From contig JAFRKI010000002.1 in NCBI GenBank assembly GCA_017431825.1, positions 155,863-219,862 of the forward strand: DNA of 64,000 bases, read 5' to 3'. This stretch comes from Erysipelotrichaceae bacterium. Its GTDB lineage: Bacteria > Bacillota_I > Bacilli_A > Erysipelotrichales > Erysipelotrichaceae. Position numbers and translations under genes: made by a program. Each line of letters opens with the position of its first letter. Position 1 is the first letter of the stretch. The notes below the pieces were generated by a model. It was given only the letters and a program-made list of their open reading frames with translations, ran no database searches and was not told the origin of the DNA. Below, one piece after another: positions 7,774 to 62,288 of this stretch.

Positions 7774-7977
7774 AATTCCCTCCCAAAACAAAAGGTGGCC
7801 CAAGGGCGCTGAAAGCGCGGTACCACCTTACTTATTACTCTTACTCTTAACGCGAGCGCACGTCTTTCGATTAAGAAGATCTCGTGAGCGGTAATCCTTT
7901 CGCATAGTCAGCTGTTTGCACCAACCACAGCCTCTCTTGAACATCTGCAAGAGGATCATGTCTCAGTCTTCGATAAC
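7774..7977 (-). promoter_or_regulatory. T-box leader (candidate Thr specifier ACC) with terminator/antiterminator
   Basis: Conserved T-box AAGGTGGTACCGCG (core at 7816-7827). The terminator arms are AAGGTGG / CCACCTT, followed by TTTGTTTT. The candidate specifier is ACC-G at 7890-7892. Upstream promoter: TTGAAA (8007-8012), 17 nt, TATATT (7984-7989). Confidence 0.85.
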
Positions 7978-7998
7978 AACACTAATATAAACTAAATC

Positions 7999-11576: not shown

Positions 11577-11825
11577 AGTCGTTCTCCTTAATAAATAAAA
11601 AGGCGGCCCAAGGGCGCAGTGCGCGGTACCACCTTTCTTTTCTCTTGAACTCTTAACGCGAGTAACGTGCATGCTTACTGCTGTTTCAGCACACAGACTC
11701 CCAGACTACTTTTCATTGCTTCCTTGTGTCCTTCGCAGCATCCAGGACATCTCTTATTACCGTCGGCAATTACTTCTTTCTGTTCTCAGTCTTTATCATT
11801 ATAAAACTTATTCGCAAATAATCAA
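11577..11825 (-). promoter_or_regulatory. Promoter plus T-box leader (candidate Val specifier GUA)
   Basis: T-box AAGGTGGTACCGCG (core at 11622-11633), with a terminator ending CCGCCTTTTTATTT. The candidate specifier is GAAAAGTAG, with GTA at 11707-11709. Promoter: TTGATT (11820-11825), 16 nt, TATAAT (11798-11803). Confidence 0.85.
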
Positions 11826-12464
11826 TTACTTATATGACTTGACGTCGATAATGTTGTACTTATCCTTAAGCAGATCAGCTACCTTATCGGAATCGGTCTC
11901 GTCTACTCTGATGATGATATTGATCTTTCCGTTTCTTTCCACTACCAGATGCGTGATGGAGATGTTTTCATCGGAAAGGATAGTAGCGATATCCTTCAGT
12001 ATGCCCGGATGGTCTTCTTCGATCGCAACGACGATCCTGGTGCCTTTGTTGTAGTAGCCCTGAACTTCGATGAAGGCACTAAAGATATCCTTCTGGGTAA
12101 TGACGCCTACCAGAAATCCCTGATCAACGACCGGTAACGTAAAGATGTCGGATTTGATCATCACATCGGCTGCCTCTTCCAGCAGATTATCAGGAGATAT
12201 CGTAGCGATGTCCTTCAGCATGATATCTGCGATCGTCGTCTTGTTCAGGAGATAGTTGATCTCATGGATAGACAAAGAAGTGGCCTTGCTTGGAACGTTT
12301 TCAGCGACCAGAGCTTCGGTTATCAGACCTACGACATGATTTGATCTGTCTACTACCGGCAGACGGTGGAAATCGCATTTATCAAAGATATCTACGGCGC
12401 TTGATACAACGTCATCAGGAGAAATGGTAACAGGGTTTCTTGTCATCTTATCTTTAACGAACAT
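11826..12464 (-). CDS. CBS-pair plus ACT domain protein (AcuB-like)
   Basis: 212 aa. Two CBS-like repeats (..HRLPVVD.., ..FTLPVVD..) and a C-terminal ACT-like segment (GTRIVVAIEEDHPGILKDIATILSDENISI). The start codon lies 1 nt after the livF stop. Confidence 0.7.
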   Translation of the reverse strand: MFVKDKMTRNPVTISPDDVVSSAVDIFDKCDFHRLPVVDRSNHVVGLITEALVAENVPSKATSLSIHEINYLLNKTTIADIMLKDIATISPDNLLEEAADVMIKSDIFTLPVVDQGFLVGVITQKDIFSAFIEVQGYYNKGTRIVVAIEEDHPGILKDIATILSDENISITHLVVERNGKINIIIRVDETDSDKVADLLKDKYNIIDVKSYK

Positions 12465-12465
12465 A

Positions 12466-13164
12466 TTAACCTCCTAGATATAGTTTCTGGACTTTTTCAC
12501 TGGCCGATAATTCTTCGCCGCTTCCTTCAAGAGCTATCCTGCCCGTTTCCATGACATAGGCATGATTGGCTATGGCCAAAGCCATGGAAGCGTTCTGCTC
12601 GACAAGGAAGATGGTGGTACCGGTACTGTTTATCGTCTTTATTATATCGAAAATATTCCTGACAAGTAACGGAGCAAGTCCCATGCTCGGTTCATCCAGC
12701 AGCATGATCTTAGGTTTGGCCATCAAGGCCCTGGCTATCGCCAGCATCTGCTGTTCGCCTCCGGATAACGTACCGGCCAGCTGGGAGGTCCTTTCCTTCA
12801 GTATCGGAAATAGCGAATAGATATATTCGAATTCATCGTCATAGCTGTCCTTACGCTGATAAGCACCTAATAGAATGTTTTCGTAAACGCTCATCTTCTG
12901 GAATATCCTCCGGCCTTCAGGCACCTGAATGACGCCTCTTTTGACTATCTCTTCCGAGTCCATCTTCAAAAGGTCTTCTCCGTCAAGAAATATCTGACCG
13001 CTTTTAGGTGTAAGCAGTCCGGATATGGTATGCATGATGGTCGTCTTGCCGGCACCGTTGGCACCGATGAGCGTACAGATCTCACCGTCCTTGATGGTGA
13101 TGTTTACGCCTTTAACGGCTTCGATCATGCCGTAACTTACCGATAGATCCTTTATTTCCAGCAT
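12466..13164 (-). CDS. livF: Branched-chain amino-acid ABC transporter ATP-binding protein
   Basis: 232 aa. Walker A GANGAGKTT, signature LSGGEQQ, LivF-type C-terminus. Confidence 0.85.
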   Translation of the reverse strand: MLEIKDLSVSYGMIEAVKGVNITIKDGEICTLIGANGAGKTTIMHTISGLLTPKSGQIFLDGEDLLKMDSEEIVKRGVIQVPEGRRIFQKMSVYENILLGAYQRKDSYDDEFEYIYSLFPILKERTSQLAGTLSGGEQQMLAIARALMAKPKIMLLDEPSMGLAPLLVRNIFDIIKTINSTGTTIFLVEQNASMALAIANHAYVMETGRIALEGSGEELSASEKVQKLYLGG

Positions 13165-13934
13165 CAGGCACCTCCCAGGTAGGCTTTGATTACTTCCGGA
13201 TTGTTCTGTATCTCTTCCGGAGCTCCGAAAGCCAAAGTAGTACCATAATTCAGTACGGTTATCTCTTCACAGATGCCCATGACGAATTTCATGTCATGTT
13301 CGATCAGCAGTATCGCAATATCAAAGTGGTCTCTGATATCCTTTATCGTATTCATCAGTTCGGCCGTTTCGCTCGGGTTCATGCCGGCAGCCGGTTCATC
13401 CAGCAGCAGCAGCGAAGGATTGGTGGCTAGAGCTCTGCAGATCTCCAGTCTTCTTTGAGCACCGTAAGGAAGCGAAGATGCCGGATGGTCCATAAGATCC
13501 TGCAGCTTGAAGATGCTTAAAAGATCGATGGCCTTCTGATAGGCTTCCTTTTCCTGTTCCCTGAACCTGCGGTTCCTGATGATGCCTTCAAAGGTATTGT
13601 ATTTTATGGAGTTATGCATGCCGATGAGCACGTTGTCGATAACGCTCAGATTATCGAATAAACGGATATTCTGGAAGGTCCTGGCGATTCCGGCCTTGTT
13701 TACTTCAACGGTAGAAAGCTTATTGATCTGCTGGCCGTTCAGTTCGATGGTGCCTCTGCTTGGATCATAGACTTTCGTAAGCATATTAAAGACGGTAGTC
13801 TTTCCGGCGCCGTTAGGTCCGATAAGTCCGACTATCTGATGCTTTCTGACCGTGATATTGAACTTGTTGACGGCTGTAAGGCCGCCGAAGTCGATACCCA
13901 GATCCTTTACCTGCAGTACGGGAGTTTCGTTCAT
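13164..13934 (-). CDS. livG: Branched-chain amino-acid ABC transporter ATP-binding protein
   Basis: 256 aa. GPNGAGKTT, and a LivG-type C-terminal extension (..NPEVIKAYLG). Confidence 0.85.
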   Translation of the reverse strand: MNETPVLQVKDLGIDFGGLTAVNKFNITVRKHQIVGLIGPNGAGKTTVFNMLTKVYDPSRGTIELNGQQINKLSTVEVNKAGIARTFQNIRLFDNLSVIDNVLIGMHNSIKYNTFEGIIRNRRFREQEKEAYQKAIDLLSIFKLQDLMDHPASSLPYGAQRRLEICRALATNPSLLLLDEPAAGMNPSETAELMNTIKDIRDHFDIAILLIEHDMKFVMGICEEITVLNYGTTLAFGAPEEIQNNPEVIKAYLGGA

Positions 13935-13935
13935 T

Positions 13936-15033
13936 CTATTCCGCCTCCTTACTGTGTGTCCTGTTAAAACGTCTGGTCTTCAGTTCAGCCAGCTTCTCCT
14001 TAAAGAACTTGTTGTTGCTGATAAGCATGATGCCGATGAGCACCAGCGAATAGATGATCATGCGGTAGGATTCGAATGATCTTAAAAGTTCCGGCAGGAC
14101 ATAGAGAACACTGGCCGAGATGATCGTGCCTGTGATATTGCCTAAACCGCCTAAAACGACATATACCAGTAGCAGTATCGACTGGTTGAAGCCGAATTTG
14201 GCCGGAGTAAGCGTCGAGAAGTTAAGACCGTACAAAGCGCCTGCGGCACCAGCCAAAGCAGCCGAAATGACGAAGGCCAGCATCTTTGTCCTGGTCACGT
14301 CGATACCTACGGATAAAGCAGCTATCCTGTTGTCTCTGGCGGCCATTATCGCCCTTCCGTTTCGGGAATCCATCAGATTATAGATAACGATAAGGCTGAT
14401 GATAATAAGGACGATGCCTACCGTAAAGGTCGAGATCCTTTGGGTGCCTGATGCACCGATAGGTCCGCCGATCAGTATCTTGCCGCTGGAACTCAGGTTC
14501 AGCTTGTTCTCGATAAAGGAGAACTGCAGACCTTTCTCATCGAAACCGAAATAGACATTGTTTATAAGTGAAACGATGATCTGACAGAAAGCCAGCGTTA
14601 CGATGGCCAGATAGTCTCCCTGCAGTTTTAAGACCGGTATACCGATCAGAAAACCGAAGAACGCACTGACGGCCGCTCCGATGATAATGACGATAACGAG
14701 CCTTAAAACGGCGTTTGTGAGCGTTCCTGCTAGCAGACCCGAGAGACATACGGCAGTGAAGGCACCGATCGACATGAAACCCGCATGTCCCAATGACAGT
14801 TCACCGGAAAGCCCGACGCAAAGATTAAGAGCCAGCGCCGCTACGATGTAACAGGTGCAAGGCACCAGCAGGTTCTTAAAGAGCGAGGAGATGTTTCCCG
14901 TCTTCAACAAGGCTTCCAGTATGACATATGCGAAAATGACGATCAGATAGGATACCGTCTGTTTCTTATGCTGTTTATCAAATAGTTTATTTAACAGATT
15001 ACTCTTTTTCATAACAAACCTACACTTTCTCAT
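13936..15033 (-). CDS. livM: Branched-chain amino-acid ABC transporter permease
   Basis: 365 aa polytopic membrane protein. The start is ambiguous: ATG 15033 overlaps livH, and an alternative ATG lies at 15012. Confidence 0.8.
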   Translation of the reverse strand: MRKCRFVMKKSNLLNKLFDKQHKKQTVSYLIVIFAYVILEALLKTGNISSLFKNLLVPCTCYIVAALALNLCVGLSGELSLGHAGFMSIGAFTAVCLSGLLAGTLTNAVLRLVIVIIIGAAVSAFFGFLIGIPVLKLQGDYLAIVTLAFCQIIVSLINNVYFGFDEKGLQFSFIENKLNLSSSGKILIGGPIGASGTQRISTFTVGIVLIIISLIVIYNLMDSRNGRAIMAARDNRIAALSVGIDVTRTKMLAFVISAALAGAAGALYGLNFSTLTPAKFGFNQSILLLVYVVLGGLGNITGTIISASVLYVLPELLRSFESYRMIIYSLVLIGIMLISNNKFFKEKLAELKTRRFNRTHSKEAE

Positions 15034-15901
15034 TTACCTTCTTGCCTAGTATACCGGTAGGTTTGATAAGCAAAACAATAATCAGGACCGCAAAGACGAT
15101 CGCATCAGACAGCTGGGTCGAGATATAGGCCTTGGAAAGGTTCTCGATTATGCCCAGCAGCAGACCGCCGACGAAAGCACCGGGGATGGAACCGATACCG
15201 CCGAATACGGCAGCCGTAAAGGCCTTGATGCCCGGCATCGAACCCAAGGTAGGATATACGGAAGGATATGTCGAACATAAAAGAACGGAAGCTATAGCTG
15301 CCAGACCGGAACCGATCGCAAAGGTGATGGAAATGGTCTTATTGACGTTGATGCCCATCAGCTTGGCGGCATCCTTGTCTTCCGAACAGGCCCTCATCGC
15401 CCTGCCGATCTTGGTGTTGTTTATAAAGAGCGTCAGAACGATCATGATGACGATGCAGGTGATGATGGTGAGGATATTGATGTATGCTATGCTCATCTTT
15501 CCGTCAAACAGGGTCAGTGAACGGTTTCCGACGATCGAAGAAAAGATCTTCGGAGATGAAGACCATAGAAGCTGGGCCATGTTCTGCAGGAAATAGGATA
15601 CACCGATGGCCGTGATCAGTACGGATAATGAAGTGGCCTGTCTTAAGGGCTTATATGCCAGTCTTTCGATAAGAACGCCCAGTGTCGTACAGACGGCAAT
15701 GGCCAGCAGTACGGCTGCAACAGCCGGCAGATTATAACGGCTAAGCGCAAAAAAAGCCACATAAGCGCCGATCATGATGACATCGCCATGCGCAAAATTA
15801 AGCATCTTGGCAATGCCGTAAACCATCGAATAACCCAGTGCGATTATGGCATATACCGAACCTAAACCTATTCCTGTGATCAGATATGATAGAAATACCA
15901 T
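15020..15901 (-). CDS. livH: Branched-chain amino-acid ABC transporter permease
   Basis: The ORF-track start at 15952 abuts an 11-bp hairpin. I prefer ATG 15899-15901 (MVFLSYLITGIGLGSVYAIIALGYSMVYG, a typical LivH N-terminus), preceded by GGGGGAAG. Confidence 0.8.
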   Translation of the reverse strand: MVFLSYLITGIGLGSVYAIIALGYSMVYGIAKMLNFAHGDVIMIGAYVAFFALSRYNLPAVAAVLLAIAVCTTLGVLIERLAYKPLRQATSLSVLITAIGVSYFLQNMAQLLWSSSPKIFSSIVGNRSLTLFDGKMSIAYINILTIITCIVIMIVLTLFINNTKIGRAMRACSEDKDAAKLMGINVNKTISITFAIGSGLAAIASVLLCSTYPSVYPTLGSMPGIKAFTAAVFGGIGSIPGAFVGGLLLGIIENLSKAYISTQLSDAIVFAVLIIVLLIKPTGILGKKVNEKV

Positions 15902-15923
15902 ACTTCCCCCTATTACCAAGACA

Positions 15924-15950
15924 GGCAGAGGCTGTTTGACAGCCTCTGCC
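15924..15950 (-). other. Intercistronic stem-loop between the binding-protein gene and livH
   Basis: Perfect 11-bp stem GGCAGAGGCTG (15924-15934) / CAGCCTCTGCC (15940-15950) with a 5-nt loop. No T-run follows on the minus strand. Confidence 0.7.
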
Positions 15951-15960
15951 ATATCAGATA

Positions 15961-17118
15961 TTATTCAGCAGCTACATATACGCCGTTTTCAATAATAACG
16001 GCCTTAGGTGACTTGGAAACTTCACCATTGGCTGCCCAGGTAGCCTTACCTGTCAAACCATCGAAAGTCATTGACGTAAACTGTCCGATCAGAGCATCGC
16101 AGATCTCTTCAGTACTGTTGGTGCCGTCGACACCGGCAGCCTTACAGGCTTCATAGATCGCATATACGGCATCATAAGCATCAGCACCGAACTGAGTAGG
16201 AGTGCCGCCGTATGCTTCCTTGAAAGCAGTTACGAAATGAACGGTCTTATCATCTGTTGCGTCAGCAGCAAACGGAGTAAGCAGATATACGCCTTCAGCT
16301 AAAGCAGTATCGAAACCTTCCAGAGTCAGGATACCGTCCATGCCGTCGATTCCGAAGAATACCGGAGCATAGCCCATGGCATCAGCCTGAGTAAGGATAC
16401 CGGCAGCCGGAGTATAGTAGATAGGCAGGAAGACGACATCGGCACCCGCATTCTGTGCAGCAGTCAGCTGGGCAGAATAGTCGGAATCGGTATCGATGAA
16501 CGAACCTTCGTAAACGATGTCAAGACCGACTTTGGCAGCTTCGTCTTTGAACTTCTGATAAACGGTAGTTGAATAGTCGTCATCGGATCTGTAGATGATG
16601 GCAACTTTCTCGCCTAAAGCGTTGTTCTTGATGTAATCGGCAGAAGCAACGCCCTGGTTAGGATCTGTGAAACAAACCTGGAAACAGTTGTCATAATTAG
16701 TTGAACCGTTGTATACCAGACCAGGATTCGATCCTGATGGCGTGATGGCGAAGATACGGTCATTGAAGTAATCTTCAACTACAGCCAGACCGGCACCGGA
16801 AGTGGTGGTATAGATGGATACCTGCATGCCCCAGTCCTTCAGGACGCCGTAAGCATTAGGAGCCTTTTCCGGATCAGCTTCATCATCTTCGAATTTGAAA
16901 TCAAAGAAGTCGAAACCTTCAGCTTCGTTGATCTCCTTGACAGCCAGCTCGGCTGCATGGAATACGTCATTGCCGTAAACGGCAGCGCCGCCGGTCAGAG
17001 GTCCCGAACCACCAAGCTTGATGGTAGGAGAAGCTTCATCGCCGCCGGATCCTCCGGAACAGCCTACCAAGCCGAATACTACGAATACGCTCAGCAGTAC
17101 AACCAATAACTTTTTCAT
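15961..17118 (-). CDS. livJ: Leu/Ile/Val-type ABC substrate-binding lipoprotein
   Basis: 385 aa. Lipobox LVGCSGG. Periplasmic-binding-protein type I fold typical of LivJ/BraC-like proteins. Substrate class is supported by operon context and by the BCAA-rich leader peptide. Confidence 0.75.
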   Translation of the reverse strand: MKKLLVVLLSVFVVFGLVGCSGGSGGDEASPTIKLGGSGPLTGGAAVYGNDVFHAAELAVKEINEAEGFDFFDFKFEDDEADPEKAPNAYGVLKDWGMQVSIYTTTSGAGLAVVEDYFNDRIFAITPSGSNPGLVYNGSTNYDNCFQVCFTDPNQGVASADYIKNNALGEKVAIIYRSDDDYSTTVYQKFKDEAAKVGLDIVYEGSFIDTDSDYSAQLTAAQNAGADVVFLPIYYTPAAGILTQADAMGYAPVFFGIDGMDGILTLEGFDTALAEGVYLLTPFAADATDDKTVHFVTAFKEAYGGTPTQFGADAYDAVYAIYEACKAAGVDGTNSTEEICDALIGQFTSMTFDGLTGKATWAANGEVSKSPKAVIIENGVYVAAE

Positions 17119-17172
17119 AATCTTTCCTCCAAATAATTTATAGCAACAGTCTGACTGTAACTATCAAAATAA

Positions 17173-17210
17173 AAAGATGAGCCCTAACAGATAACATTCA
17201 GCTCATCTTT
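17173..17210 (-). terminator. Attenuator terminator in the liv leader
   Basis: 10-bp stem AAAGATGAGC (17201-17210) / GCTCATCTTT (17173-17182) with an 18-nt loop, followed on the minus strand by TTTATTTT. It lies 55 nt upstream of the livJ ATG. Confidence 0.7.
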
Positions 17211-17247
17211 ATTTAACTAATATGCTGAAATGATATCCGTTATCCTG

Positions 17248-17349
17248 CTACGACATAATAATAATGCCACCTAACAGGCGCAGTCGCAGGATAACCACAA
17301 TAACCATTTCATCAACAAAGGAAATACATGCATCAAGTATCTTTTTCAT
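17248..17349 (-). CDS. 33-aa Ile/Leu/Val-rich leader peptide (candidate attenuation peptide)
   Basis: It is not in the ORF track because it is too short. ATG at 17347-17349 is preceded by AAAGGAGA. Translation: MKKILDACISFVDEMVIVVILRLRLLGGIIIMS, then TAG. 16 of 33 residues are I, L or V, and 12 of the last 18. Confidence 0.55.
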   Translation of the reverse strand: MKKILDACISFVDEMVIVVILRLRLLGGIIIMS

Positions 17350-17372
17350 AACGTATCTCCTTTCTTGTATTC

Positions 17373-17401
17373 ATATTAACGCTTATGAAAATAAGTGTCA
17401 A
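17373..17401 (-). promoter_or_regulatory. Sigma-70-type promoter of the liv leader/operon
   Basis: TTGACA (17396-17401), 17 nt, TAATAT (17373-17378) on the minus strand. Confidence 0.6.
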
Positions 17402-17444
17402 TATTCATTTTCATAATATTTTCATTATTCTGAAAATATTTTCA

Positions 17445-18023
17445 TTAAGGGACACGGTAGAATATCGGACTCGTTGCATTCTTGAGATATAAAGGACCGA
17501 TGATGGTCGTACCGAGATAATTGCCCTGTAAGGCCGTTTCCGGTCCAAGATAGATGGCCCAGTGCTCGTAGCCGATACCGCCGTTGGCATAATAGACGAC
17601 GTCGCCCGGTACCGGATCGGATATCTGATAAGCGTCAGCTATGCGGTGTCCTTCGCCCATATAGATAGTGATGAACTTCTGGGCTACGTAGAAGCAAGAG
17701 CCGCCGGTCCCCACCAGATAATTGGCTATATCCCACACGGAATCAAGGCTAGGAAGCGAGGTCTTTCCCCTCTTGGCGTTCTTTTCCTTGATCTCCTTGA
17801 TCGTTTCGATCTTGATATCCAGGAAGCTGTCCAGGACAGTGATATCTTCATAGGACAGGGAAACGTCATTCTTCGATACGACGCTGTCCTGTTTGGGAGC
17901 GATGATCTCCACGTTTTCAACGTCCTTGAAAGGACCCGGATTCTCCGGATCTTCCGTTTCCGGTGCATTTCCCGCCATCAGTACGTTGATGACCTCGAAT
18001 ATAACAATAAGTTTTCTAATCAT
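17445..18023 (-). CDS. NlpC/P60-like (papain-fold Cys/His) domain protein
   Basis: 192 aa. The C-terminal half has ..GGSCFYVAQ.. (Cys) and ..YEHWAIYLG.. (His) with NlpC/P60-like spacing. The N-terminal hydrophobic stretch is weak. Overlaps the engB end by 8 nt. Confidence 0.4.
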   Translation of the reverse strand: MIRKLIVIFEVINVLMAGNAPETEDPENPGPFKDVENVEIIAPKQDSVVSKNDVSLSYEDITVLDSFLDIKIETIKEIKEKNAKRGKTSLPSLDSVWDIANYLVGTGGSCFYVAQKFITIYMGEGHRIADAYQISDPVPGDVVYYANGGIGYEHWAIYLGPETALQGNYLGTTIIGPLYLKNATSPIFYRVP

Positions 18024-55519: not shown

Positions 55520-55640
55520 AACGGACCTGATGAGGAAAATTTCCTGATGCGCCAATCAGGTGGGTCAGCTACATATGCCTTCAGGATCCCTGGTCAGGCC
55601 AGGCTTTCAACACCGGCATACGACGCGCATAAGACCCGTA
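55520..55640. other. Structured, locally GC-rich intergenic element (candidate sRNA or 5'-UTR element; family and strand unassigned)
   Basis: Nested complementary segments: GGGTC (55562-55566) / GACCC (55633-55637); TATGCC (55574-55579) / GGCATA (55615-55620); CCTGG (55589-55593) / CCAGG (55599-55603). There is also a hairpin CCTGAT / ATCAGG (55543-55560). The 245-bp gap is otherwise unexplained. Confidence 0.3.
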
Positions 55641-55717
55641 TAAATAATGTAGGAATTTAACAACTCACCAGGCACTTATATTATCTTATAGAAATGCCGT
55701 CATTTAAAGTCTTGACA

Positions 55718-62048: not shown

Positions 62049-62288
62049 AAGATTACTCCTTTACATAAAAAAACCGCGATATAGGAACGAAGATCGCGGT
62101 ACCATCCTAATTCAGTAATAAATACTGCACTTTATAACTATAACGCGTTACCGGACATGATTGGTGTCACTATAAGGATGAATTCACTTATCTGCTCATA
62201 CAGGGCTTGCACCGTATCCCTGCTCGCTTCATGGACTTAAGATAAGCTACTGCTTCCTTTTTAATCGCTTTACTTAAGTATTGTAGCA
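62049..62288 (-). promoter_or_regulatory. T-box leader (candidate Phe specifier UUC) with promoter
   Basis: T-box AGGATGGTACCGCG (62095-62107). Terminator ATCGCGG (62093-62099) / CCGCGAT (62074-62080) followed by TTTTTTT. Candidate specifier TTC-A at 62180-62182. Extended -10 TGCTACAAT at 62280-62288. Confidence 0.85.

Follow-up and report, generated by a model that had tools for sequence, protein, structure and literature searches.

We have identified a leader upstream of the branched-chain amino acid (BCAA) importer operon livJHMGF in a 64,000-nucleotide (nt) stretch of an Erysipelotrichaceae bacterium genome (GenBank assembly GCA_017431825.1, contig JAFRKI010000002.1, positions 155,863 to 219,862; hereafter the window). 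This locus is very probably a ribosome-mediated (leader-peptide) transcription attenuator controlling that operon. A first-pass annotation, made from the sequence alone, had described the architecture as that of trp/leu/ilv-type attenuation, and this description is supported by every sequence-level hallmark, conserved with covariation in 42 distinct leaders of the same genus. The hallmarks comprise an open reading frame (ORF) with its own start, clustered regulatory codons, an intrinsic terminator, mutually exclusive 1:2, 2:3 and 3:4 pairings, and the stop codon/region 2 geometry that characterizes this class of attenuator. The mechanism is of the classical trp/ilv/leu type; what is new is a genus-wide family of such leaders on a liv importer. 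From the elements, their conservation and their covariation we infer translation of the leader ORF, ribosome stalling, a termination product and the amino acid(s) sensed.

All leader elements, namely the promoter, Shine-Dalgarno (SD) sequence, 33-codon ORF, terminator and competing pairings, lie on the minus strand. The promoter (17373..17401) is of the sigma-70 type, with a TTGACA -35 element (17401-17396), a 17-nt spacer and a TAATAT -10 element (17378-17373); with 10 of 12 matches it bears out the good promoter first annotated here. The SD sequence AAAGGAGA (17363-17356) is located 6 nt 5' of the ATG at 17349, which opens the leader ORF (17349..17248; 33 codons followed by TAG at 17250-17248). 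The encoded peptide, MKKILDACISFVDEMVIVVILRLRLLGGIIIMS, contains 7 Ile, 5 Leu and 4 Val, with these three residues occupying 12 of the 18 C-terminal positions, so that the strong ribosome-binding site, the ORF and its composition were all found again as originally listed. Ile codons fall at positions 4, 9, 17, 20 and 29-31, the last forming an ATT ATT ATT run (17265-17257), and ATT accounts for five of the seven Ile codons, as opposed to 9% of Ile codons in 10 neighbouring genes.

The intrinsic terminator (17166..17210) consists of an 11-bp stem (17210-17200 / 17183-17173), a 16-nt loop and the T-run TTATTTT (17172-17166), with a predicted energy of -13.1 kcal/mol. Its stem begins 37 nt 3' of the ORF stop and ends 54 nt 5' of the livJ ATG (17118). 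The terminator had been annotated as a 10-bp stem 55 nt before livJ; its presence stands, and the stem length and distance are corrected to 11 bp and 54 nt. RNAfold recovered the hairpin in both a 254-nt and a 141-nt fold. A simple consensus terminator scan missed it for the sole reason that its 16-nt loop exceeds the scanner's limit of 8 nt.

Three segments of the leader RNA compete for pairing. Region 1 (17279..17315) is the 5' strand of a 1:2 anti-antiterminator (-30 kcal/mol), in which the core GTTATCCTGC (17295-17286) is perfectly complementary to GCAGGATAAC (17248-17239). Region 2 (17222..17254) starts 4 nt before the stop codon and can pair with either region 1 or region 3. Region 3 (17184..17207), made up of the terminator 5' arm and loop, is the 3' strand of the 2:3 antiterminator, where GGATATCATTTCAGC (17238-17224) pairs with GCTGAATGTTATCTG (17202-17188) through 13 pairs, one bulge and one mismatch. 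This duplex has an energy of -21.4 to -21.7 kcal/mol (z = -4.5 to -4.9) and occupies 7 of the 11 nt of the terminator 5' arm. Both pairings had been noticed at the outset, and both are present, with the 1:2 core perfect as claimed; one boundary, given as 17186, was off by 2 nt and is placed at 17188. The 254-nt leader as a whole folds at -72.8 kcal/mol (z = -4.8), a value matched by none of 200 dinucleotide shuffles. A fourth pairing, hairpin P0, would sequester the SD: its 5' strand is the SD region (17352..17368) and its 3' strand is the anti-SD segment TGTATTTCCTTTGTTGA (17312..17328, codons 8-13), and in the window the duplex has an energy of -18.3 kcal/mol (z = -5.1). Judged at the level of sequence, and mainly by its conservation in relatives, this arrangement is beyond chance.

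The distribution of the leader was determined in a sample of 58 genomes of the genus, the relatives being labelled uncultured Solobacterium sp. or Erysipelotrichaceae bacterium and originating from rumen and other gut samples. A first DNA search identified 15 same-genus livJ loci with conserved upstream DNA, each with an ORF of 33-41 codons that contains Ile runs and precedes a terminator, and a covariance model of the leader was built from 14 of these. The model gave one match in the window's own genome and matches in 39 of the 58 genus genomes, with a single strong match each that was always directly upstream of livJ. LivJ itself was found in 53 of the 58. Among the 14 livJ-bearing genomes without a model match, nine keep a diverged leader ORF with an Ile run and a terminator, and in the remaining five livJ stands in another upstream context with no leader. 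The leader is thus present in 48 of the 53 livJ-bearing genomes of the genus.

Outside the genus, none of 20 livJ homologues from other genera of the order (13 of them at 59-69% identity to the window LivJ) carried a leader ORF with a terminator. Of the best 80 livJ loci in a species-level genome collection, only three had the leader, all in metagenome-assembled genomes (MAGs) labelled Solobacterium or Erysipelotrichaceae; one is a contig of genome G003, already in the genus count, and the other two are Erysipelotrichaceae rumen MAGs with matching leaders. The leader had no Rfam match at the gathering score, and at E <= 10 the region 16900-17700 gave chance-level hits only (best E = 0.22, an unrelated small RNA), with no leader-family, riboswitch or T-box match in the leader region. 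A search of four leader peptides against Pfam and NCBIfam returned no relevant family.

Two observations made during these searches concern other loci. In a close relative, the model gave a second, weak match at the livJ 3' end (locus L051, 249-365; G003 contig 25, 12975-13091), which probably reflects a terminator-like hairpin between livJ and livH; in the window the livJ-livH gap is only 8 nt and has no hairpin of this type. At three further loci (L151, L164 and L165), which belong to an Anaerovoracaceae MAG (MNKLLSYNIIGIIRVLGLIIVGIVVVI) and two other Bacillota MAGs, non-homologous small ORFs rich in Ile, Leu and Val with strong terminators precede livJ homologues. These ORFs may be independent inventions of leader-peptide attenuation of liv.

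The leader ORF is conserved as a translated frame would be across the 42 distinct same-genus leaders, which form the comparative set for what follows. The ATG is present in all 42 and an SD-like motif in 40; one of the two leaders lacking the motif looks leaderless, with its -10 element only 6 nt from the ATG. A promoter with at least 9 of 12 matches, of the TTGACA-16/17-TAAACT/TAATAT type, lies 5' of 36 leaders, usually 23-31 nt before the ATG. The leader frame is open over 32-41 codons, whereas stops interrupt frame +1 in every leader and frame +2 in 38 of them. Ile makes up 17.4% of leader residues compared with 9.2% in the ten neighbouring genes, the longest run of a single residue is an Ile run in 30 leaders, and a run of at least three Ile occurs in 31. 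Enrichment of Leu (1.4-fold) and Val (1.3-fold) is milder. Region 1 holds two to eight Ile codons in every leader, and it is this central cluster (V-I-I-D, I-I-V-I-I-I, A-I-I-S-V-I-I, I-I-I-I-I), located inside region 1, that is universal; the C-terminal G-I-I-I-M run of the window leader is limited to a sub-clade. Ile positions vary synonymously (ATT/ATC/ATA) and conservatively (I/V/L). With regard to the proposal of Ile/Leu/Val-rich regulatory codons, the Ile run is therefore universally conserved, while Leu and Val are only mildly enriched.

The RNA switch is conserved alongside the frame. All 42 leaders have an intrinsic terminator, with hairpin and T-run, and a region 2 whose start lies -4 to +1 nt from the stop codon. 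Median duplex energies are -22 kcal/mol for 1:2 and -14.8 kcal/mol for 2:3; the 2:3 duplex has z < -2 against shuffles in 38 leaders, shares 13-33 nt of region 2 with the 1:2 duplex, and invades at least 3 nt of the terminator 5' arm in 37. The partners of regions 1 and 2 diverge while their pairing is kept, as GTTATCCTGC/GCAGGATAAC in the window, ATTATCGAT/ATCGATAAT in most leaders and ATTATAATTAAC/GTTAATTATAAT in another clade. One genome has a wholly different terminator, of the AAATAAGTTGG...CCAACTTATTT type, together with a matching region 2.

Covariation was counted in a 41-sequence alignment that had been fitted to the 1:2 plus terminator structure and not to the antiterminator. For 1:2 plus terminator, 82.5% of cells were paired, as against 33-52% with slid partners, both-side changes occurred in 22 of 29 pairs, and the covariation score of 0.293 (0.166 shuffled) was reached by none of 500 shuffles. 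The terminator stem alone was paired in 95.6% of cells, with both-side changes in five of nine pairs. The antiterminator gave 83.8% paired cells versus 34-51% for slid partners and both-side changes in 9 of 14 pairs, and its score was likewise reached by 0 of 500 shuffles. Covariation of the ORF and stems among orthologous liv leaders had been proposed by the first-pass annotation as a check, and the outcome was compensatory change in both conformations with the frame conserved. Hairpin P0 has a median energy of -13.8 kcal/mol across the 42 leaders, with z < -2 in 30 of them, and the conserved I-S-F motif of the peptide is explained by this hairpin, since codons 8-13 pair with the SD region. 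Eight of the 42 leaders have their T-run so close to the livJ ATG (20-27 nt) that a separate promoter could not be accommodated; in these, livJ would be transcribed only by readthrough.

Folding in constrained alternative states, another check suggested from the start, was performed with a ribosome model in which only RNA 3' of the ribosome footprint was allowed to fold. For the full-length window leader, placing the A site on codons 15-32 brought the predicted terminator probability to approximately 0, and with the stop codon in the A site it was 0.9. Similar terminator-off windows were obtained in approximately 10 of 15 leaders by full-transcript folding. In a second model, transcripts were cut 5' of the terminator 3' arm and the probability of the specific 2:3 pairs was read out; across the 42 leaders the median 2:3 probability was 0.84-0.92 when Ile codons were occupied by the ribosome, fell to 0.27 when it sat at the stop and was 0.39 for untranslated RNA. 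These models replaced two earlier ones. A footprint fold that permitted pairing across the ribosome was misleading, with 1:2 re-forming around the footprint, and in truncated transcripts the fraction of the 5' arm paired with any partner was a readout that could not tell ribosome positions apart. In the truncated model the contrast is weaker for the window leader.

We propose the following mechanism for the window leader. Transcription would start at about 17366, and a ribosome would load on the leader ORF before codons 8-12 sequester the SD. When charged Ile-tRNA (and probably Leu- and Val-tRNA as well) is ample, the ribosome would reach the TAG at 17250-17248 and cover region 2, leaving region 3 free to pair with region 4 so that the terminator forms; RNA polymerase would then stop at the T-run (17172-17166) and release a leader RNA of approximately 200 nt. 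If the leader were not translated, regions 1 and 2 would pair and the terminator would form as well. When charged tRNA-Ile is scarce, the ribosome would stall within codons 15-32, the segment with 12 Ile, Leu or Val among 18 codons, on or just past region 1. A ribosome stalled there would mask region 1 or keep regions 1 and 2 apart, and the freed region 2 would pair with the terminator 5' arm and loop as the 2:3 antiterminator. Polymerase would read through into livJHMGF and import would rise. Because of hairpin P0, initiation would be possible only on the nascent transcript; the ribosome-binding site of the E. coli trp leader has been described as sequestered in a comparable way. The ATT-rich Ile codons and the SD:anti-SD hairpin fit a tuned sensor.

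Several points weigh against this reading of the locus as an attenuator. In the equilibrium folds of full transcripts, the terminator wins at every ribosome position in four to five of the 15 leaders, an outcome that is expected in such a model if the decision is kinetic. In the truncated model the window's own leader goes only from a 2:3 probability of approximately 0.9 to 0.5 with the ribosome at the stop, and reaches 0.69 when untranslated; footprint folding is therefore supportive overall but, in the truncated model, weakly discriminating for this leader. The covariation of 1:2 plus terminator was measured on the alignment fitted to that very structure, and the shuffle statistics overstate significance because the relatives are phylogenetically correlated; the slid-partner controls retain this relatedness yet score far lower than the true partners. 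Codon and structure constraints are also entangled. In the window leader, ATT/ATC and the complement GATAAT double as pairing elements, and part of the apparent codon conservation may be an RNA constraint, since the ATT-rich Ile runs pair with GAUAAU of region 2. Finally, Leu is locally enriched too, and the specificity could be for Ile alone or for all three BCAAs.

The pairing data would also accommodate a real terminator/antiterminator switch that is flipped by a trans factor (an RNA-binding protein, an uncharged tRNA or a small ligand), the ORF being incidental or serving for tuning only, in that three-way pairing and its covariation need no translation by themselves. RNA pairing would further explain much of the peptide conservation, with I-S-F as the anti-SD and V-I-I-D as region 1, and a protein with CBS-CBS-ACT domains that possibly senses amino acids is encoded right after livF. 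Such a switch leaves unexplained the ATG in every leader and the SD in 40 of 42, a frame kept open while both alternative frames are closed in all or nearly all leaders, a stop codon held at the edge of region 2 throughout, and Ile positions that vary synonymously or conservatively. The Rfam searches at E <= 10 returned no T-box, riboswitch or other match, and we regard this explanation as improbable. Alternatively, the leader could encode a nascent arrest peptide similar to TnaC or SecM, whose C-terminal G-I-I-I-M-x-x-C would sense a free amino acid or some other cue and halt the ribosome close to the stop codon whatever the state of tRNA charging. In favour of this, a large sub-clade conserves GIIIM(x)xC-stop as a peptide motif. 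This reading fails because many members of the family lack GIIIMxxC and keep the full RNA architecture (for example leaders ending in ...AIISVIIRLLSLRSLLIG, ...AIIIIILDLCLLISK or ...LAIIIVIIIMLLSAVTFS). Moreover, a ribosome arrested at the stop codon or close to it would cover region 2 and promote termination; high amino acid would thus still mean OFF, and the outcome would be indistinguishable from that of the classical model. We know of no such arrest motif and consider an arrest sensor very unlikely.

The small ORF might instead be an independent gene for a hydrophobic peptide, such as a membrane peptide or one resembling a type I toxin, with its own promoter and terminator, livJ being expressed from a separate promoter (TTGATA ... 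TGCTATAAA) in the gap of about 50 nt. The peptide is indeed hydrophobic, its hydrophobic stretch nevertheless being broken by Arg residues. A TGn-TATAAA extended -10-like sequence does occur at approximately 17145-17137, between the terminator and livJ; the spacing from the -35-like to the -10-like element is about 19-20 nt, however, a start there would fall in or beside the livJ SD, and the TG is not conserved. The candidate second promoter (TTGATA-19 nt-TATAAA) was accordingly rejected on its spacing, its non-conservation and the eight leaders that lack the segment and leave no room for a promoter. A promoter-like site and a 50-amino-acid antisense ORF on the plus strand (17264..17416) overlap the leader, and the antisense ORF was discarded as unconserved, being kept in only 10 of the 42 leaders. 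A stable membrane peptide or toxin with an independent function was the outcome that the first-pass annotation had named as contradicting its proposal. The absence of a Pfam or NCBIfam match, the occurrence of the element only upstream of livJ and once per genome, and a covarying antiterminator overlapping the terminator, which an independent peptide gene leaves unexplained, all speak against it, and we assign this possibility a very small likelihood. Leader-peptide attenuation of livJHMGF is the reading that we carry forward.

The operon under this proposed control extends over 12466..17130 on the minus strand, its SD included, and its genes were assigned from Pfam matches. They are livJ (17118..15961; Peripla_BP_6), with the SD GGAGG at 17130-17126; livH (15952..15020) and livM (15033..13936), both BPD_transp_2; and livG (13934..13164) and livF (13164..12466), both ABC_tran. 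A gene for a 212-amino-acid CBS-CBS-ACT protein (12464..11826, minus strand) starts 1 nt after livF and is apparently the last of the liv operon. Amino acids are common ligands of ACT domains, and this protein may be a BCAA-sensing accessory of the transporter. Downstream of the operon and this gene are a T-box and then the gene for valyl-tRNA synthetase (ValRS). T-box leaders, all on the minus strand, were found at 7799-7979, 11607-11796 and 62080-62274, upstream of threonyl-tRNA synthetase (ThrRS), ValRS and phenylalanyl-tRNA synthetase (PheRS) alpha/beta, respectively. The ThrRS and PheRS T-boxes score just below the Rfam gathering score (73.8 and 89.3 versus 93 bits), and the earlier remark that the three aminoacyl-tRNA synthetase genes of the window use T-boxes holds with two of them slightly sub-threshold. 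Elsewhere in the window, 55520-55677 (minus strand) gave a sub-threshold 6S RNA match (36.7 bits versus a gathering score of 46.4; E = 8e-4).

The window's genome (1.68 Mb, 94% complete) has a single LivJ match. In this 94%-complete assembly we found no ilvD (PF00920), ilvC (PF07991), BrnQ (PF05525) or CodY (PF06018, PF08222), with control genomes giving the expected results. The organism is probably a BCAA auxotroph dependent on this one importer, and it seems to be without CodY, the customary BCAA regulator of Gram-positive bacteria. A sensor of tRNA charging placed on the importer is physiologically sensible because ilvC, ilvD, BrnQ and CodY were not found and LivJ is single.

Additional conserved sequences surround the leader. 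A post-terminator hairpin (TAGTTACAGT-CAG-ACTGTTGCTA, followed by TATAAA; 17141..17163, minus strand) is conserved in 34 of the 42 leaders and is missing from the eight whose T-run abuts the livJ SD (20-27 nt from livJ). Its outer TAGA/TCTA is conserved and its inner stem covaries (ACAG/CTGT, AGTC/GACT, AGCC/GGCT, AAGC/GCTT); it may act as a 5' structure that stabilises the mRNA, or as a site of processing or protein binding. Immediately 5' of the -35 element (17406-17440, minus strand) are three ATGAAAAT repeats and two CodY-box-like sites with three mismatches each, and similar TGTGAAAA / TTTTCAGAAAA motifs occur upstream of livJ in relatives without the leader. The repeats possibly serve another regulator or have a function resembling that of an UP element. 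Control by CodY was considered and rejected, given that CodY-box-like sites such as these (17406-17438) occur at chance-level frequency window-wide at three mismatches and no CodY gene was found.

These conserved extras, i.e., the SD-sequestering hairpin, the post-terminator hairpin, the CodY-box-like repeats and the GIIIMxxC motif, are the reason for considering a further layer, in which the terminated RNA of approximately 200 nt and/or the peptide would have a second, trans-acting role and the locus would be a multi-layer hub of BCAA starvation. In Sinorhizobium, the trp attenuator RNA rnTrpL and its peptide peTrpL have been shown to act in trans (PMC7298713, PMC7968998). Through the SD-sequestering hairpin, translation of the leader would be restricted to a single pioneering round. 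By analogy with that system a trans-acting role can be envisaged, and we think it unlikely for this locus.

Leader-peptide attenuation of BCAA biosynthesis is textbook knowledge in enterobacteria (review PMC6123439). The window leader resembles the E. coli/Salmonella ilvGMEDA (ilvL), ilvBN (ivbL), leuABCD (leuL) and trpL paradigm in its short leader (about 28-33 codons in these systems) rich in the regulatory amino acid(s), its 1:2/2:3/3:4 pairings, its terminator before the first structural gene and a stop codon whose position lets a terminating ribosome cover region 2. Unlike the enterobacterial attenuators, it would control an ATP-binding cassette (ABC) uptake system rather than biosynthesis, belongs to the Erysipelotrichaceae (Bacillota), and shares no sequence or Rfam similarity with them. 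The family also has extras, namely the SD:anti-SD hairpin and, in most members, the post-terminator hairpin, and the pairing elements of its RNA are the Ile codons (AUU/AUC) and the complementary GAUAAU.

Within the Bacillota, attenuation of ilv-leu by a leader peptide has been shown in Staphylococcus aureus (PMC5794164) and Listeria monocytogenes (PMC5864092). These leaders and that of Lactococcus lactis leu-ilv are likewise ribosome-mediated, rich in BCAA codons and Gram-positive, and the mechanism thus operates in the phylum. They differ in that their targets are biosynthetic and they act with CodY, whereas in the window genome the target is an importer and no ilvC, ilvD or CodY was found; their sequences are unrelated to that of the window leader. 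Upstream of BCAA transporters in Bacillota, Ile/Leu/Val T-box leaders are known, those for Ile standing before both carriers and ABC systems (Wels et al. 2008, PMC2494555). These similarly place a terminator/antiterminator switch that reads tRNA charging before a BCAA importer; they bind uncharged tRNA, in contrast to the window leader, where the sensor would be a ribosome translating the leader ORF and the site has no T-box signal. In Bacillus subtilis, bmrB-bmrCD is a drug exporter under ribosome-mediated attenuation (PMC4191407). There too, the operon of an ABC transporter in the Bacillota is governed by a leader ORF with a terminator; that system differs in sensing antibiotic-induced ribosome stalling and is not specific for the codons of any amino acid. 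The predictions of Naville and Gautheret for Firmicutes include "regular" leader peptides and many ABC-transporter leaders that are unexplained (PMC2965389). In our full-text literature search, we found no leader peptide that senses amino acids described for a liv importer, in agreement with the initial impression that uptake systems in Bacillota are not usually under leader-peptide control.

With this finding, leader-peptide attenuation, a textbook mechanism of biosynthetic operons, would extend to the only BCAA importer of what appears to be a BCAA auxotroph, in a lineage that otherwise uses T-boxes for its aminoacyl-tRNA synthetase genes and seems to be without CodY. With 48 genomes, 42 distinct sequences and both switch conformations supported by covariation, the family is useful for annotating rumen and gut Erysipelotrichaceae MAGs. 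It is a candidate Rfam-type family, and the leader is a candidate compact Ile-responsive genetic part. Taken with the apparently independent leaders rich in Ile, Leu and Val in other Clostridia-type MAGs, it suggests that ribosome-mediated control of liv may be recurrent and under-annotated in Bacillota.

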